Of a stretch of 32,000 nucleotides of DNA, positions 12-11,604 are shown piece after piece. Numbering within the stretch: the first letter of the stretch is position 1; every line of letters starts with the position of its first letter. Made by a program: the position numbers and the translations under genes. Source of the stretch: Corynebacterium amycolatum (GTDB taxonomy: Bacteria > Actinomycetota > Actinomycetes > Mycobacteriales > Mycobacteriaceae); NCBI RefSeq assembly GCF_049243625.1, contig NZ_CP046975.1; one strand, written 5' to 3'. The notes below the pieces were generated by a model that ran no database searches, was not told the DNA's origin, and saw nothing but the letters and a program-made list of their open reading frames with translations.

Positions 12-1403
<1,392 letters not shown>

Positions 1404-5232: not shown

Positions 5233-6333
5233 TTAGAAGCGGACAGCGCCTTGGTACGGGCCGCCCTGGTCGATGGAAACGACCTGGACCGGAATGCCGT
5301 AGTCGGAAGCATGGACAATCTGACCATTGCCGATGTACATGCCTACGTGGGTAATGCCCGGGTAGTAACCGATGATGTCACCTGGCTGCAGCTGGTCACG
5401 GCTTACCGGGGTGCCACCGGCGAGCTGTGCCTGCGAAGTACGCGGAATGGACTTACCAATCTGCTGGTACGCCCAGTACATCAGACCGGAACAGTCGAAT
5501 GCGGAGGGACCAGCAGCTCCCCACGAGTACGGGGAACCCAGCTTCGACATCGCGGCATCAACTGCGGCGGAAGATCCGAGCAGTTTATCCAGCCCTTCGG
5601 TAATTGGGTTGTTCTTGGAAATCCAGATTTCCCGCTGTTCGGGGCTCAGCGCATCAACCATGGACTTGACATGCTCGGCGCGCTCATCAAATTCAGCGCT
5701 GCGCTTGTCCAAATCATCGCGACGCTTAGCCAGACCATCGAGCTGCTTGCGGATATCTCCCTGCAGACGCAGCGCATTGACCTTACCCTCCTCGGCATCC
5801 TTACGGGCTTGCACCGCACGGCTGACGACTTCATCGTTGTCGCGGAACATCTTATTGATGTAACCGGTACGGTCGATAGCGTCCTGAGCACTGGCAGATC
5901 CCAGTGCGGCCGACAACGGGTCGACGATTTCACCACGCATCCGCTTCTTCGCGAAGTAGGAAATCTCGCCAGAGAGCGCCTTGAGGTCATCCTGTGCTCG
6001 GAGAACCTGATCCTCAGAGCGCTTCAGCTCCCCCTCGGCGTGCCGGAGTTCCTCTTCCTTGGCCTGAACCTGAGAATCCAGCTCGGTAACTTCCTCCGAA
6101 ATCGCTTCGGTATCCCGAGAAATCTTCTCCAGCTCTGCAATAATGCCGTCTGCAGTAGCCAGATCCGGGGCTGGCTGTTCATCCTGCGCAGACGCAATCG
6201 GCGCCAAACCTACGGAGCCAAAGGTTAGCCCAGCCACGACCGTCAGCCCGACTACACCGCGACGAGAGTTGTGGCGACGGCGAGAGGCACGGTGACGCGA
6301 CAAATCCAAACCCTTTTCAAATTGTGTATTCAA
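5233..6333 (-). CDS. Secreted NlpC/P60 peptidoglycan endopeptidase with long N-terminal coiled-coil (RipA/RipC-like)
   Basis: It has an Arg-rich signal peptide and about 200 aa of heptad-like E/K/L/D-rich sequence. The C-terminal NlpC/P60 domain shows the FDCSGL catalytic Cys and ITHVGMYIGNGQIVHA His. The only in-frame start is TTG at 6333. Confidence 0.85.
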   Translation of the reverse strand: MNTQFEKGLDLSRHRASRRRHNSRRGVVGLTVVAGLTFGSVGLAPIASAQDEQPAPDLATADGIIAELEKISRDTEAISEEVTELDSQVQAKEEELRHAEGELKRSEDQVLRAQDDLKALSGEISYFAKKRMRGEIVDPLSAALGSASAQDAIDRTGYINKMFRDNDEVVSRAVQARKDAEEGKVNALRLQGDIRKQLDGLAKRRDDLDKRSAEFDERAEHVKSMVDALSPEQREIWISKNNPITEGLDKLLGSSAAVDAAMSKLGSPYSWGAAGPSAFDCSGLMYWAYQQIGKSIPRTSQAQLAGGTPVSRDQLQPGDIIGYYPGITHVGMYIGNGQIVHASDYGIPVQVVSIDQGGPYQGAVRF

Positions 6334-6649: not shown

Positions 6650-7228
6650 TTAGAAGCGGACGAAGTTGTGAACCGGCATGTAGTTCATCGGAGCTTCCTT
6701 GACGACATCGCCGGACTGCGGAGCGTGAATCACATTGCCGTTACCGGAGAAGATGCCGACGTGGGTAGCGCCAGAGTAGAAGGAAACGATGTCACCCAGT
6801 GCCGGGCTGGAGACCGCGGTGCCCTGGGAAGCCTGCGCCTGGGAGGTGCGCGGGATCGACTTACCGACCTGCTGGTATGCCCAGGAGGTCAGACCGGAGC
6901 AGTCGAAAGAGTTCGGACCGGTGGCACCCCACACGTACGGGGAACCGATCTTGGAACGTGCGGCGGAGACGATAGCCGAACCAGTGGACGGTGCTGCAAC
7001 GTTTGCAACGCTGCCGGAGGTAACCTCACCTGCGACATCATTGAACTTGCCAACAACATCCTGCAGACCTGCAACCTGCGGGGTATCGAAGCCGTTCAGT
7101 GCGCCCTGGATGTCGTTCAGCGGGTTAGCGTTAGCGGTCGGAACTGCGAGAGCGGTAACGCCGGCGACGGTTGCGCCAAATGCGACTGCGTTGCGTGCAA
7201 AGTTAGAACGGCGGTGGTGCTTGCCCAT
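6650..7228 (-). CDS. Secreted NlpC/P60 peptidoglycan hydrolase (small paralog)
   Basis: 192 aa with a signal peptide (AVPTANA). The NlpC/P60 core (FDCSGLTSWAYQQVGKSIPRTSQAQ ... ATHVGIFSGNGNVIHA) closely parallels the downstream paralog. Confidence 0.9.
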   Translation of the reverse strand: MGKHHRRSNFARNAVAFGATVAGVTALAVPTANANPLNDIQGALNGFDTPQVAGLQDVVGKFNDVAGEVTSGSVANVAAPSTGSAIVSAARSKIGSPYVWGATGPNSFDCSGLTSWAYQQVGKSIPRTSQAQASQGTAVSSPALGDIVSFYSGATHVGIFSGNGNVIHAPQSGDVVKEAPMNYMPVHNFVRF

Positions 7229-7257
7229 TGTTTTGAAACTCCAAAATCTTCCTGTTT

Positions 7258-7421
7258 AGCCGACCGGGTTAGCTGACGGGTTCGGAAGAATGGAAGACTT
7301 CCTACCCTCCGGGATTTCCCTTTGGGATTCACCCCATGGTTCGAGGTGGGTCCCCGGCTCGAATCCCCTGAGGTTCTCACTACCTAGCCCCTCAGGACCT
7401 TCGATAAGGCTCTGTGTTTTC
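7258..7421 (-). promoter_or_regulatory. ydaO/yuaA-type cyclic-di-AMP riboswitch aptamer
   Basis: The minus strand contains CCUGAGG-N16-CCUCAGG, GGAUUCGAGCCGGGGACCCACCUCGAACC, AUGGGGUGAAUCC and CCGAACCCGUCAGCUAACCCGGUCGGCU. These match the conserved ydaO blocks in order and spacing. It ends about 29 nt before the NlpC/P60 ATG. Confidence 0.85.
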
Positions 7422-7741: not shown

Positions 7742-9388
7742 TTGCTCAAGTTTCACAGTTTTAACACTACTAGGAGCGCTCAGAATAGGATTATTGACGT
7801 GAATTCAGGACAACAGCACTTCCCTCTCGAAGGCTCCGTCGATGATTCTCTTTTCAACACCACCTTTGTCGTCGTAGACCTAGAAACGACTGGACTAAAG
7901 GCCAAGAACGACCACATCATTGAAATTGGGGCCATCAAAACCCGTGGCGGCAAGACAATTGGCACCTTTTCCAGCTTCATCGACCCCGGCATGGAGATTC
8001 CCGACCACATCACATCTCTCACCGGCATCACTACCGCCGATGTTGAAACTGCCCCACAGCTCGGCACAGTTATTACTCAGTTCCTCGAATTTGCTCGGGG
8101 AAGCGTCTGGGTTGCGCATAATGCCAAGTTCGATATTGGATTCCTCCGCCAGGCTTGCACAGATTTGGGCCTAGATTGGCCAAGCCCCAGCGTCGTAGAC
8201 ACTCTCACGTTGGCGCGTCGCGTCCTTGACCGCTCACAAGTTGGCAGTTTCAAGCTCTCACAGCTCGCACGGTACGTCGGTTCTCCGAATCGCCCCACCC
8301 ACCGGGCGCTTGACGACGCAATCGCAACCGTCGACGTCCTTCACTACCTCATGGAGAGACTAGTCGGCGATGAAGTACAAACAGCGTCCGAGCTAGTGCA
8401 TTACTCGCCGACCGTCGCTCCGGAGGTTCGTGCTAAACGGCATCTTGCCGATCGAGCTCCGCACACCCCTGGTGTCTATGTTTTTCGGTCAAGAAATGAC
8501 GACCCCTTATATATAGGTACAGCTCTCGATTTGCGACGTAGACTTCTGCAGTATTTCAACGGCACTGATTCTCGTCGCAAGATTACGGAAATGGTCTCTC
8601 TAGCCGAACGCGTCGAGATCATCGAATGCCTGCACGGCTTCGCAGCAGAAATCCGCGAGGCTCGTCTGATCTCTGCACTCCGTCCGCCCTACAACCGACA
8701 ACGTACCGAACCGACCCGCGGCTGGTACATCATCCCCGCTAGCCCCGGTCGGCCTGCCAAGATTAGCCGAACAGTCACCGACGCCCGCAGCCTAGGTCCT
8801 TTCCGCACGCGCGACACCGCTACTGCCATCCGCGACAGGTTCTCCGCACTTAACGACGACTTTGCGATAACAACCGCCCAGATCTCCACCACCGGCGCAG
8901 ACGAGATCGCAGACATGATTGCTGAGATATCAGCACTTGCCAAAGCACACCGCTTCCAACGCACGGCAGTGCAGCGTGACCGCACTGCGGAGTTCATTAT
9001 CAGCTTGGATAAGCAGCAGCGCCTGAGCATGCTTGCCGCCATCCCATCTCTGCAAGCCGCTTTCCCCGATGGCAATGGTGGCTGGCACCTAGCGGAAATT
9101 CGCTATGGCAGGCTGGCCGGCGCCAGCACCGCACCGCGTGGCGCGGATATGAGCTACATCATCGACCTCATGGAGAGTTCAGCCCAAACAGTCACTCCAG
9201 ATGACTCCTTATATAAAGGAGCATCAATTGATGAACTCAGTATTGTCTGGAAATGGCTGCAGCGCCCGGAGGTACGAATAAAGCCCACCGGAGGCGAGTT
9301 TTCCTACCCCAGGTTGGGCGCAGGAAAATACCTTCAGTGGGCAATTGACGCGCAGCAAGCACGTCGTGAAGCGCGACGCGAACCTTAA
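7742..9388 (+). CDS. DnaQ-like DEDDh 3'-5' exonuclease fused to a GIY-YIG (Cho/UvrC-N-like) nuclease domain, with an uncharacterised C-terminal region (Rv2191 family)
   Basis: Exo motifs are VVDLETTGL, AHNAKFDIGFL and HRALDDAIATVDV. The GIY-YIG motif is PGVYVFRS...LYIGTALDLRRRLLQYF. The start is uncertain: the ORF track begins at TTG 7742, and GTG 7799 is an alternative. Confidence 0.8.
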   Translation: MLKFHSFNTTRSAQNRIIDVNSGQQHFPLEGSVDDSLFNTTFVVVDLETTGLKAKNDHIIEIGAIKTRGGKTIGTFSSFIDPGMEIPDHITSLTGITTADVETAPQLGTVITQFLEFARGSVWVAHNAKFDIGFLRQACTDLGLDWPSPSVVDTLTLARRVLDRSQVGSFKLSQLARYVGSPNRPTHRALDDAIATVDVLHYLMERLVGDEVQTASELVHYSPTVAPEVRAKRHLADRAPHTPGVYVFRSRNDDPLYIGTALDLRRRLLQYFNGTDSRRKITEMVSLAERVEIIECLHGFAAEIREARLISALRPPYNRQRTEPTRGWYIIPASPGRPAKISRTVTDARSLGPFRTRDTATAIRDRFSALNDDFAITTAQISTTGADEIADMIAEISALAKAHRFQRTAVQRDRTAEFIISLDKQQRLSMLAAIPSLQAAFPDGNGGWHLAEIRYGRLAGASTAPRGADMSYIIDLMESSAQTVTPDDSLYKGASIDELSIVWKWLQRPEVRIKPTGGEFSYPRLGAGKYLQWAIDAQQARREARREP

Positions 9389-10452
9389 CCCTTCATCGCC
9401 GCGGTAACGATGTCCAGGCACAGCCCCGACTGGAGCGTTTCCTTGACCTCTTCAATGGAGTCGGCCATAGCTTCCTTTAGCGGACGGCCACCCAGACCAC
9501 GCGAAATGGCGATTGCGGCGGCGGAGTTAAGGATGACTGCATCGCGAATCGAACCTTCGAGTTCGCCAGCCCAAATGCGACGTGCAACATCAGCGTTGTA
9601 CGCGGGGTCACCGCCACGCAGCGCGTCAATTTCGGAGTACTCCATGCCATAGTCATGTGGATCGATGACATCTTCGGCAACTTCACCGTTTTCCACAATA
9701 AAGACCTTGGTGGGGCCAGTAACAGTAATCTCGTCGAGACCATCGCTTCCGCGTACCACCAACGCGCGCTGACCACGGCGGGCGAAGGTGTCCGCCATCG
9801 TCTCCATCTGATCTTCGAAGGCACAGCCAATCAAGCTTGCCTGCGGGCGTGCTGGATTCGTCAGCGGCCCCAACAGGTTGAAGACTGTCGGAACCGCTAG
9901 CTCCTTACGCACCGGTCCAGCGAAGCGCATGGCCGGATGAAAGCGAGCGGCAAAGAGGAAGCGCACGTAGAAGTCCGGATGTTCCGGAGAAGTAACGAGA
10001 CCGTTCTCAATGTCGATGCCAAAGGCCTCTAGCATGTCAGCTCCGCCCGACTTCGAGGAAGCCGCGCGGTTACCGTGCTTGAGCACCGGCACACCACTGG
10101 CCGCGATAACAATCATGGACATCGTGGAGATGTTGACGGTATTTGCGCCATCACCACCGGTGCCGACGATATCGACTGCACCGCGCTCAATAACACCGGC
10201 GAGCTGTGGATCATGAACTGGGCGGGCAAACGAAAGCATGCCCTCAGCCGCAGCATCGAGCTCGGCAGCCGTAATCCCCTTGGCGAGGAGACCGAAAGCA
10301 AACGTTGCGGTCTGGATGTCTCCGGAAGCACCTGACATGATCTGATCCATGGCGAATCGAATGCCCTCACCGGAAACTTCGCGGCCAGCGCCAATCGTGG
10401 AAAGAACATGGCGCCAGTTTTCGACCGCCCTCTTATCGCCGATCTCGCTCAT
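9385..10452 (-). CDS. trpD: Anthranilate phosphoribosyltransferase
   Basis: It has GTGGDGANTVNISTM and KHGNRAASSKSGGADMLEAFG motifs. I prefer ATG 10452, which has GGAAGGGAG 5 nt upstream, over the ORF-track GTG 10458, which abuts the SD. Confidence 0.85.
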   Translation of the reverse strand: MSEIGDKRAVENWRHVLSTIGAGREVSGEGIRFAMDQIMSGASGDIQTATFAFGLLAKGITAAELDAAAEGMLSFARPVHDPQLAGVIERGAVDIVGTGGDGANTVNISTMSMIVIAASGVPVLKHGNRAASSKSGGADMLEAFGIDIENGLVTSPEHPDFYVRFLFAARFHPAMRFAGPVRKELAVPTVFNLLGPLTNPARPQASLIGCAFEDQMETMADTFARRGQRALVVRGSDGLDEITVTGPTKVFIVENGEVAEDVIDPHDYGMEYSEIDALRGGDPAYNADVARRIWAGELEGSIRDAVILNSAAAIAISRGLGGRPLKEAMADSIEEVKETLQSGLCLDIVTAAMKG

Positions 10453-10508
10453 CGCCACTCCCTTCCACTAGATAGTCAAGTCTGTACTCGTACTTTATTA
10501 ATACAAAT

Positions 10509-10586
10509 GCACCTAGGTGCTGCTGGTTATTCCGCCCACCAGATGCACCACATCACGGGGCTTTCTGGAAAATCCCACCGTGATGT
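10509..10586 (-). promoter_or_regulatory. Set of overlapping alternative hairpins around the mini-ORF (candidate attenuator)
   Basis: P1: 10586-10574 pairs with 10560-10550 (11 bp, 1 bulge) and covers the mini-ORF start. P2: 10549-10539 GGUGCAUCUGG pairs with 10526-10516 CCAGCAGCACC (9/11). P3: the perfect 12-nt palindrome GCACCUAGGUGC (10520-10509) is followed by AUUUGUAUUAAUAAA. Confidence 0.4.
10527..10553 (-). CDS. Candidate Trp-rich leader peptide MWCIWWAE (8 codons plus stop)
   Basis: The minus strand reads ATG TGG TGC ATC TGG TGG GCG GAA TAA. AGAAAG lies 7 nt upstream of the ATG, and an in-frame GTG sits one codon upstream (10556). The stop is 74 nt upstream of the trpD ATG on the same strand. 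Confidence 0.5.
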   Translation of the reverse strand: MWCIWWAE

Positions 10587-10753
10587 ACGTAATAAGACAA
10601 GATACCTCCCCCATATATCCAGCGCATCACCAGGTCCGCCTTTTGCGTTCGCCGAAAATCTCACCCCCATTGGGGCAACTGGAAAAATACGATATTAAAT
10701 AGAGCCGAACCTGCGATAAACTAACCGACAGCCGATGCCGCAGTATCGCTAAC

Positions 10754-10810
10754 CCAGGTTCGCCGAAGGTGAACCTGGCAGTCCAGGGGGATGGACTCCG
10801 CGCACCGCGG
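10754..10810. other. Three back-to-back short hairpins in the trpD/ctaE spacer
   Basis: The pairs are CCAGGTTC-N9-GAACCTGG (10754-10778), AGTCCA-N6-TGGACT (10780-10797) and CCGCG-cac-CGCGG (10798-10810). No flanking U-tract on the plus strand. Function unknown. Confidence 0.3.
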
Positions 10811-10904
10811 CACAACAAAACCCTCGAATTCACCCGCGTCGGATAAAGACACTGGAAAGTTCCCAACAGGGGGAAAAATTAGTGAAATTCTCAGAAACCT
10901 TTCC

Positions 10905-10934
10905 TTGCGACCTGGGATTTTAGGAATTTATATA
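10905..10934 (+). promoter_or_regulatory. Candidate promoter of ctaE-qcrCAB (TTGCGA-N18-TATATA)
   Basis: The two hexamers were read directly. The -10 lies about 55 nt upstream of the ctaE GTG in an AT-rich patch. Confidence 0.3.
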
Positions 10935-10969
10935 CAAAAATGGGGGTTGCAACGTGACTACTCCTTAAG

Positions 10970-10985
10970 AACAGTACATACTGTT
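10970..10985. promoter_or_regulatory. Perfect inverted repeat AACAGTA-ca-TACTGTT, 4 nt upstream of the ctaE start codon
   Basis: The 7-bp arms are perfectly complementary. The repeat sits where an SD would be expected. It could be an operator or an RBS-occluding hairpin. Confidence 0.35.
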
Positions 10986-10989
10986 AGAT

Positions 10990-11604
10990 GTGACGAGCGC
11001 AGTTGAAAATCAAGGTATGACAGCACCACGTCGTGCTGCGACACTGAACCGACCGAATATGGTCAGTGTCGGCACGATTGTGTTCCTGTCTCAGGAATTA
11101 ATGTTCTTCGCCGGTCTGTTCGCGATGTACTTCGTGTCACGCGCGAACGGCCAGGGCGATTCGTGGGATTGGGGTACCGGCCACCTCAACGTCCCGTACG
11201 CACTAGTGATCACCGTGATCCTAGTGTCGTCTTCGTTCACTGCCCAGTGGGGCGTGTTCGCGGCCGAGCGTGGCGACGTTTTCGCACTCCGTAAGTGGTA
11301 CGCACTGTCTACCGCCCTGGGTGCAATCTTCCTCGTTGGCCAGGCTTACGAGTACTTCACCCTGGTTAGCCACGGTCTGACCATTCAGAACTCCATTTAC
11401 GGTTCGGTCTTCTTCATCACCACCGGATTCCACGCAGCCCACGTTCTCGCGGGTGTGCTGGCTTTCGTTGTGGTGCTTATCCGTACCTCCAAGGCGAAGT
11501 TCACCCCGGCACAGGCCACTGCTGCCATTGTGGTCTCGTACTACTGGCACTTCGTCGACGTCGTGTGGATTGGCCTGTTCATCACCATCTACTTCATCCA
11601 GTAG
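10990..11604 (+). CDS. ctaE: Cytochrome aa3 oxidase subunit III
   Basis: The 204-aa membrane protein has an N-terminus ([48 protein letters not shown]) nearly identical to C. glutamicum CtaE as I recall it. GTG start. Confidence 0.9.

Follow-up and report, generated by a model that had tools for sequence, protein, structure and literature searches.

A Trp-codon-rich reading frame in the hairpin leader of a stand-alone trpD gene of Corynebacterium amycolatum

Introduction

Does the stand-alone trpD gene of Corynebacterium amycolatum carry a tryptophan sensor of its own? The question is raised by a stretch of 32,000 nucleotides from contig NZ_CP046975.1 (the whole of this stretch is called the window below), in which a short open reading frame (ORF) of eight codons, three of them for tryptophan, lies on the trpD strand upstream of that gene. 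A first-pass annotation of the window had seen in this mini-ORF and its surroundings the general architecture of ribosome-mediated trp attenuation. Classical trp attenuation is not supported by our analysis, and we do not file the element as a member of the trpL type. The reading that we favour, and to which we would give about an even chance, is that the mini-ORF is an incidental reading frame within lineage-specific hairpins of the trpD leader and not a Trp sensor. In the sister species, a compensatory change keeps the stem of the main hairpin while the mini-ORF is destroyed.

A Trp-codon-rich reading frame upstream of trpD

10527..10553, minus strand: mini-ORF MWCIWWAE* (ATG, three TGG, TAA), read directly from the sequence
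9385..10452, minus strand: stand-alone trpD (anthranilate phosphoribosyltransferase), Pfam PF02885 and PF00591, E = 5e-72

The mini-ORF reads ATG TGG TGC ATC TGG TGG GCG GAA TAA from 10553 to 10527 on the minus strand, with the ATG at 10553-10551, the three TGG codons at 10550-10548, 10541-10539 and 10538-10536, and the TAA at 10529-10527. The ATG of trpD (10452-10450) follows on the same strand, 74 nt past the stop codon. In these respects the sequence matches the first-pass annotation exactly, and so it does for an AGAAAG located 7 nt upstream of the mini-ORF ATG, and for a solitary trpD on the mini-ORF strand, which carries both Pfam domains and is divergent from ctaE. MWCIWWAE is thus an ORF with at least two Trp codons that is positioned upstream of a trp gene and co-oriented with it.

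How unusual is such an ORF? In the 32-kb window it is the sole ATG-started ORF of at most 15 codons with at least three Trp codons, both strands considered. When the 537-nt spacer between trpD and ctaE was shuffled with its dinucleotides preserved (n = 20,000), an ORF of this kind appeared in 0.39% of the shuffles, and the share rose to 1.3% with any start codon and to 3.3% when up to 30 codons were allowed. Chance thus seldom produces such a mini-ORF, but with a generous definition of a "Trp-rich leader" it is no extreme rarity.

The mini-ORF in related genomes

Upstream regions of trpD were taken from 23 species-representative genomes, from 5 metagenome contigs and from about 50 contigs reached via exact-protein look-ups; a 16-mer scan of metagenomes returned 67 loci, only 5 of which were true relatives. 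The C. amycolatum complex is represented by 45 loci, corresponding to 21 haplotypes over 920 nt (94.5-100% identical) and to 8 leader haplotypes. Exactly the haplotype of the window is also found in CP120206.1 and CP068168.1. The closest genome loci are those of C. amycolatum SK46 (98%) and of a strain labelled 1285_CVIT (97%). The latter, L001, is the sister species referred to throughout; its spacer is 87% and its TrpD 97% identical to those of C. amycolatum. Its record is titled 'Corynebacterium vitaeruminis strain 1285_CVIT'; it resembles a member of the C. amycolatum group and may be mislabelled.

In the complex, 45 of 45 loci (all 8 leader haplotypes) have the ATG, the three TGG codons and a stop codon intact, and the encoded peptides are MWCIWWAE, MWCTWWAG, MWCAWWAG and MWCTWWTG. 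L001 has conserved flanking blocks but reads GCG, TAG, TGC, ACC, TAG and TGA at the corresponding positions, so that the ATG is replaced by GCG and the three TGG by TAG, TAG and TGA. A Trp-dense upstream ORF (uORF) was found at this position neither in L002 (TrpD 95% identical), L003 (87%), L091 (89%), L093 (84%) and L094 (78%), nor in C. lactis, C. xerosis, C. freneyi, C. sphenisci, C. nuruki, several metagenome-assembled genomes and Dietzia, which have the same ctaE/trpD layout. Altogether the mini-ORF is absent from 15 further species that share the layout of the locus, namely the five with handles above and ten more distant ones. The Trp codons and the frame are thus conserved in the 45 loci of the complex but in none of the relatives outside it. 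The loss of the Trp codons in relatives, which the first-pass annotation had named as a sign against an attenuator, is seen in every relative beyond the species complex, from L001 onward.

Two observations concern the corresponding region of other species. L003 has a GTG-started ORF of 23 codons, MLSAWWHLRLRLSPITSGYFWQV, with a tandem WW, located 311 nt upstream of the trpD ATG and upstream of the conserved blocks described below. It is the only other W-containing uORF before trpD among 16 other species and is probably a chance occurrence, since by a rough estimate, not a computed one, about one match per 16 spacers is expected. In L093 (positions 145-210 of that locus; TrpD 84%), 4.4 tandem copies of a 15-nt unit, ACGCACTAAGTGGTT, occupy the place of the two hairpins of the window, which is another sign of rapid turnover in this part of the trpD leader.

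Hairpins H1 and H2

10550..10586, minus strand: hairpin H1 (the pairing P1 of the first-pass annotation), 3' arm with the mini-ORF AUG, loop with AGAAAG; -16.2 kcal/mol, pair probability 1.0
10507..10548, minus strand: hairpin H2, 5' arm 10548-10537 (ORF codons 2-6), 3' arm 10519-10507; -19.7 kcal/mol, pair probabilities 0.95-0.97
10509..10520, minus strand: exact palindrome GCACCTAGGTGC (the earlier P3), forming the 3' half of H2
10495..10506, minus strand: AU-rich tail UUGUAUUAAUAA after H2, read from the sequence, not a clean U-tract; no terminator called

Three pairings around the mini-ORF, P1 to P3, had previously been traced by hand and taken to be mutually exclusive. Each of them is real as a match. 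P1 has perfectly complementary 9-nt arms (10550-10558 and 10578-10586; the -16.2 kcal/mol of H1 includes an extension) and buries the mini-ORF start codon in its stem, P2 has standard pairs at 9 of 11 positions, and P3 is an exact palindrome of 12 nt. Their mutual exclusion does not survive, because P1 ends at 10550 and P2 starts at 10549 without a shared base. In folds by minimum free energy and by partition function, H1 and H2 are adjacent, compatible and coexisting (pair probability at least 0.95). There is no chain of competing helices: the dominant partner of the ORF segment is H2, which had not been described earlier, and not P2 or P3. P2 amounts to -13.0 kcal/mol with a probability of 0.026, and P3 alone (4 bp, -5.5 kcal/mol, probability close to zero) forms only when the 5' arm of H2 is masked; position 10519 of the palindrome is C, T or A among the haplotypes. 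H2 also contains an inner helix, 10535-10532 with 10526-10522, and the stop codon of the mini-ORF is situated in the H2 loop.

In the window haplotype the segment with H1 and H2 is more stable than its shuffles (z = -3.4 to -3.8; z = -3.5 for H1). It is no more stable than shuffles in L027, L095, L120, L001, L002, L003 and L091.

The two hairpins differ in how they have changed. H1 is kept in the complex mainly via G-C to G-U changes, but L001, with changes at 9 of 22 arm positions, no longer has it. H2 has 11 stem pairs, all of them kept in L001, and across 9 haplotypes including L001 the bases are paired in 98 of 99 cells; the changes in the stem comprise one compensatory exchange of G-C to A-U and three wobble transitions. 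The compensatory exchange is the one that turns codon 5 from TGG to TAG in L001, matched by ACC to ACU in the 3' arm of H2. Overall, L001 differs at 2 of 22 positions in the H2 stem and at 20 of 55 in the rest of H1 and H2 (Fisher p = 0.024), to which the H1 arms contribute 9 of 22, the H1 loop 7 of 16 and the H2 interior 4 of 17. Beyond H2 the tail reads (A/G)UUGUAUUAAU in the complex and GCCGUAUU in L001, and the two bases adjoining the stem are UU and CC, respectively.

Pairing in H2 bears directly on the apparent conservation of the Trp codons. At the variable ORF bases of the stem, 10545, 10544 and 10543, a transition keeps a wobble pair, and at the invariant ones, 10541-10538, which make up most of codons 5 and 6, a transition breaks the pair. 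The Trp-codon bases in the stem cannot take transitions without loss of the pair. Base pairing thus accounts for much, though not all, of the apparent codon conservation. Covariation against shuffle controls was not significant, either for H1 and H2 or for P2, because the sequences are too close.

A repeat of the repetitive extragenic palindromic or miniature inverted-repeat transposable element kind, or another mobile element, was also considered as the source of the hairpins and rejected: neither the palindrome nor the arms recur in the window more often than expected by chance, and no repeat family was found in the spacer.

Conserved blocks, putative promoter and the proposed role of the hairpins

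10580..10612, minus strand: conserved block (c), GGGGGAGGTATCTTGTCTTATTACGTACATCAC, from alignments; no variable site in 10609-10590 (21 haplotypes)
10450..10495, minus strand: conserved block (d), AAGTACGAGTACAGACTTGACTATCTAGTGGAAGGGAGTGGCGATG, the proximal trpD leader with Shine-Dalgarno (SD) sequence and start codon; no variable site in 10469-10450
10466-10458, minus strand: SD of trpD, GGAAGGGAG, read directly from the sequence

Block (d) hardly varies between the window and L003 (TrpD 87%), and most of it is still invariant in L091. In block (c), TATCTT at 10604-10599 is the sole TANNNT on the trpD strand that is conserved in 12 of 12 haplotypes (at least 5 species). From conservation only, we infer that it is the -10 element of trpD, with a transcription start site near 10593-10590, and therefore that H1, the mini-ORF and H2 would belong to a 5' untranslated region (UTR) of about 140 nt. 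A scan for consensus promoters found no sigma-70-type promoter on either strand.

Under the favoured reading, the segment between block (c) at 10612-10580 and block (d) at 10495-10450 is a fast-evolving stretch that folds into H1 and H2, and the high polymorphism around the mini-ORF, given below, counts in favour of this reading. One frame of the G/U-rich GUGCAUCUGGUG, the arm of H2 that pairs with CACC.AGGUGCAU from its 5' side, happens to read UGG UGG, and an in-frame AUG comes from the 3' arm of H1, CCGUGAUGU. H2 pairing explains the visible selection at least as well as coding does. Transcription of trpD would start from TATCTT, and within the 5' UTR the two hairpins may serve as constitutive structural elements, protecting the mRNA 5' end and/or acting as a leaky pause or termination site. 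Translation from the buried, SD-less AUG would be rare.

A different account, which we hold to be improbable, places the hairpin segment outside the trpD mRNA altogether and makes the ORF irrelevant. The segment would then be either a set of inverted repeats or operator-like sites acting at the DNA level, with the promoter located 3' of H2, or a small RNA (sRNA) of about 95 nt starting from block (c), with H1 as the 5' hairpin, H2 as the terminal hairpin and the U-rich tail at its end. The AT-rich GTATTAATAAAGT after H2 holds TAAAGT (a TANNNT, 10497-10492) in most haplotypes of the complex and in L001. The same motif is TAAAGC in L004 and is missing from L002, L003 and L091 despite their conserved block (d), and, as said, no consensus promoter was found on either strand. 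The conserved GTAC motifs of blocks (c) and (d) could be protein-binding sites. With about 27 nt between their arms, the inverted repeats would make an unusual operator. For the sRNA version, H1, H2 and the tail have the right outline, and an sRNA derived from an attenuator acts on trpDC in Sinorhizobium (PMC6614838); against it, the tail is not a proper U-tract and no Rfam family matches.

Block (c) can also be read as the start of a short ORF. GGAGG precedes a TTG start codon (10600-10598), giving a 15-codon uORF1 whose TGA (10555-10553) overlaps the mini-ORF ATG. Its frame relative to the mini-ORF varies among haplotypes through indels of 1-2 nt and is overlapping, fused in frame or out of frame. 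In the conserved part of this TTG ORF, first, second and third codon positions are conserved alike. The TTG ORF (MSYYVHHGGIFQKAP, 10600-10553) was rejected both as a conserved small protein and as a coupling device, its start being TTA in L091 and its relation to the mini-ORF frame being variable. Two ORFs on the plus strand, 10408-10698 and 10517-10702, were rejected as coding, since haplotype indels of 1-2 nt at 10572 and 10561-10560 shift their frames.

Some further features of the spacer may be recorded. Several of its blocks are far better conserved than the hairpin segment between them, namely GGGGGAGGTATCTTGTCTTATTACGTACATCAC and AAGTACGNGTACAGACTTGACTATCTAGTGGAAGGGAG and, further 5' (about 10680-10625), GCCCCAATGGGGGTGAG ... 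GGACCTGGTGATGC; relatives with a TrpD identity of 87-89% still have them. Between CGTAC of block (c) and GTACG of block (d) a 5-bp helix could form that encloses the variable segment; alternatively, the two motifs could be binding sites for a protein. A strong hairpin, CCAGGTTCGCC-GAA-GGTGAACCTGG, with 11-nt arms that are 91% complementary and a 3-nt loop, is present at 10754-10778, in a second polymorphic stretch of the spacer (10809-10750).

Does the mini-ORF sense tryptophan?

The principal alternative to an incidental frame is a minimal and recently evolved Trp-sensing leader that exists in the C. amycolatum complex only. We regard it as possible while leaning against it. The uORF would be translated and would occlude H2 directly, with no antiterminator. 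Under starvation the ribosome would stall at codons 2, 5 and 6, on the 5' arm of H2, so that H2 cannot form and trpD rises; with ample Trp it would quickly be released at the UAA, which is situated in the H2 loop, and H2 could re-form together with its U-rich tail and serve as a weak terminator or expression-lowering structure.

Several observations weigh against the incidental frame and in favour of such a sensor. Three Trp codons in an eight-codon ATG ORF before a Trp-pathway gene are rare (0.39% by the tight and 3.3% by the loose definition), and this ORF is on the correct strand, inside what we take to be the 5' UTR of that gene. The invariance of the ATG, the three TGG and the stop codon throughout the complex contrasts with the other codons, which vary. 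All 8 of the 8 variable sites of the mini-ORF spare the ATG and the three TGG (hypergeometric p = 0.003, within the complex), although no other 40 nt of the 920-nt region are as polymorphic (17 of 40 sites variable compared to 12% overall). The changes in the remaining codons (TGC/TGT, I/T/A, A/T, E/G, TAA/TAG) resemble those of a free leader peptide. Not all of the invariance can be traced to pairing: the invariant bases 10549, 10548 and 10536 are unpaired, and the invariant 10553 and 10537 face partners whose variation breaks the pair. Hence 5 of the 12 ATG/TGG bases are unprotected by pairing and yet invariant, with p of about 0.04-0.15 given that about 47% of unpaired sites vary. The argument from their joint invariance is suggestive, though post hoc and weak. 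On the side of the hairpins, the covariation support for H2 is thin (two compensatory events, with shuffle controls that are not significant), and beyond the complex and L001 the structure of the segment is not above shuffles.

The layout of the leader offers some further points for a sensor. It is precisely the 5' arm of the strongest hairpin that holds the Trp codons, and H2 no longer forms when they are masked. Next to the H2 stem, the complex has the two bases UU, and the ORF-less L001 has CC. In the window and in L004, L034 and L120, the TTG ORF with its GGAGG ends in UGAUG over the AUG and could deliver ribosomes to the mini-ORF. There is also precedent in the genus, since Corynebacterium trp operons use Trp-codon leaders (PMC1262725).

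Set against these, the mini-ORF is absent in every species beyond the complex, including one whose TrpD is 97% identical, and in that species H2 persists without the ORF. The frame relation to uORF1, through which ribosomes could be delivered, is not conserved among haplotypes. The parts that an attenuator uses, which are considered next, also argue against the sensor.

Attenuator parts

No intrinsic terminator with a GC-rich stem and a U-tract was called in 10450-10600; the sensor would thus lack the GC-rich, poly-U terminator of its kind. An antiterminator that excludes a terminator was not found either, and when the footprint of a ribosome on the Trp codons is masked, only the 4-bp P3 remains. 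Conservation is also lacking for the SD-like AGAAAG, which occurs in 6 of 21 haplotypes, with CAACAG or CAAAAG in the other 15, and the mini-ORF AUG is paired within the H1 stem (-16.2 kcal/mol). As regards the terminator and the antiterminator, the general architecture of ribosome-mediated attenuation claimed by the first-pass annotation is not borne out; the initiation signals are poor.

Nor is a Trp-dependent switch apparent in the parts. A 30-nt ribosome footprint masked at codon 2, 5 or 6 abolishes H2, and a footprint at the stop codon does likewise. Any translation opens H2, and by itself the layout does not tell starved from replete cells apart; discrimination would need special kinetics. 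This agrees with a caveat already attached to the earlier proposal, that no logic of starvation leading to readthrough could be found, and its other caveat, that P3 is short and its U-tract interrupted, was equally well placed (4 bp, followed by a tail that is not a clean U-tract). P3 was rejected as a terminator: with -5.5 kcal/mol it is populated only if H2 is blocked, and the logic would be inverted, starvation leading to termination.

A search of the whole window with Rfam 15 in gathering mode returned a cyclic di-AMP (c-di-AMP) riboswitch only, and no Trp_leader or T-box. At E up to 10, the sole match in 10350-11100 was a chance one of a microRNA family on H1 (16.5 bits against a threshold of 101). 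A known RNA family, be it Trp leader, T-box or other riboswitch, was accordingly rejected for this leader.

The trpD locus and other features of the window

10990-11604, plus strand: ctaE, divergent from trpD, whose neighbours are unchanged in all relatives

Database entries for C. amycolatum include TrpD proteins identical to that of the window. The gene order runs from a class-II DAHP synthase through an Rv2179c-like exonuclease, an acyltransferase, a ROK kinase, a GT4 glycosyltransferase and two NlpC/P60 genes to a protein with RNase_T and GIY-YIG domains and trpD (minus strand), followed by the divergent ctaE-qcrC-qcrA-qcrB (plus strand) and then by asnB, cobU/T/S, an ilvE-like and a pepA-like gene. 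This is the arrangement of M. tuberculosis Rv2178c-Rv2213, where trpD (Rv2192c) stands alone. According to its genome paper, C. amycolatum has a complete Trp pathway (PMC8878833). The gene list given there holds a single anthranilate phosphoribosyltransferase and a 'tryptophan-associated membrane protein' like that of M. tuberculosis, which is suggestive only (PMC8878833).

The class-II DAHP synthase, which catalyses the first step of aromatic amino-acid synthesis, is encoded at 12-1397 (minus strand), and the 68-nt spacer upstream of it (1398-1465) contains no uORF rich in aromatic codons. The c-di-AMP riboswitch aptamer (ydaO/yuaA; 68.4 bits, gathering score 38) occupies 7243-7385 on the minus strand, directly 5' of an NlpC/P60 cell-wall hydrolase gene at 6650-7228 (minus strand); a second NlpC/P60 gene is found at 5233-6333 (minus strand). 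The association of c-di-AMP riboswitches with cell-wall hydrolase genes is known in Actinobacteria.

Implications and comparison with known leaders

How could a Trp leader have come about in one species complex? In a scenario that we think unlikely, point changes (TAG/TGA to TGG and GCG to ATG) turned the 5' arm of a pre-existing H2 into a newly born, eight-codon Trp-sensing uORF that works by direct occlusion and needs no antiterminator. If this were true, the locus would be a natural snapshot of the origin of an attenuator. A functional uORF would be the first described leader of a stand-alone trpD in the actinobacteria, and an unusually small, antiterminator-less case of amino-acid attenuation beside a sister species with the hairpin and without the ORF; the pair would then be useful for studying how attenuators originate. 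An earlier remark that no leader is known for a solitary trpD agrees with our search, as the literature that we searched contained none. At present the evidence is mainly a caution. UGG runs arise readily in G/U-rich hairpin arms (GGUG/CACC), so that base-pairing constraints can mimic richness in a codon beside its cognate gene, even together with conservation within a complex.

The pyrBI leader of E. coli is a direct-occlusion attenuator, in which the ribosome blocks a leader hairpin with no separate antiterminator. It senses UTP via pausing of RNA polymerase, and its leader ORF runs through a canonical terminator. If the mini-ORF were functional, occlusion of a hairpin by the ribosome, as in pyrBI, would be the only logic by which its layout could work. 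Unlike pyrBI, the mini-ORF stops within the hairpin loop, and the tail that follows is not a U-tract.

In Sinorhizobium meliloti, a separate trpDC unit is controlled in trans by rnTrpL, the sRNA of the trpE attenuator (PMC6614838). That system resembles a Trp-sensing version of the present locus in placing a trpD unit apart from trpE under Trp-dependent RNA control, and it differs in that trpDC has no leader ORF of its own (PMC6614838).

Trp-codon leaders are known for the trp operons of C. glutamicum and C. diphtheriae, and the described trp attenuators of Corynebacterium and Streptomyces all have a GC-rich terminator with poly-U (PMC1262725). Like these and like trpL of E. coli, the trpD leader studied here has a short ORF with UGG codons, two of them in tandem, before a co-oriented trp gene, and hairpins that overlap the ORF. 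The classical leaders precede operons led by trpE or trpB, possess an overlapping antiterminator and are conserved across genera (PMC1262725), whereas here a solitary trpD is preceded by eight codons that are confined to one species complex.

In the candidate leaders of Mycobacterium cys operons, as here, a short upstream ORF contains successive cognate codons and no intrinsic terminator can be recognised; Rho-dependent or translational control has been suggested for them (PMC1262725). The sequence 3' of the mini-ORF is not C-rich, unlike a rut site, and while the cys leaders can be aligned across species (PMC1262725), the mini-ORF is lost in the nearest sister species. The element of C. amycolatum is closer in spirit to these terminator-less mycobacterial cys leaders than to the trpL type.

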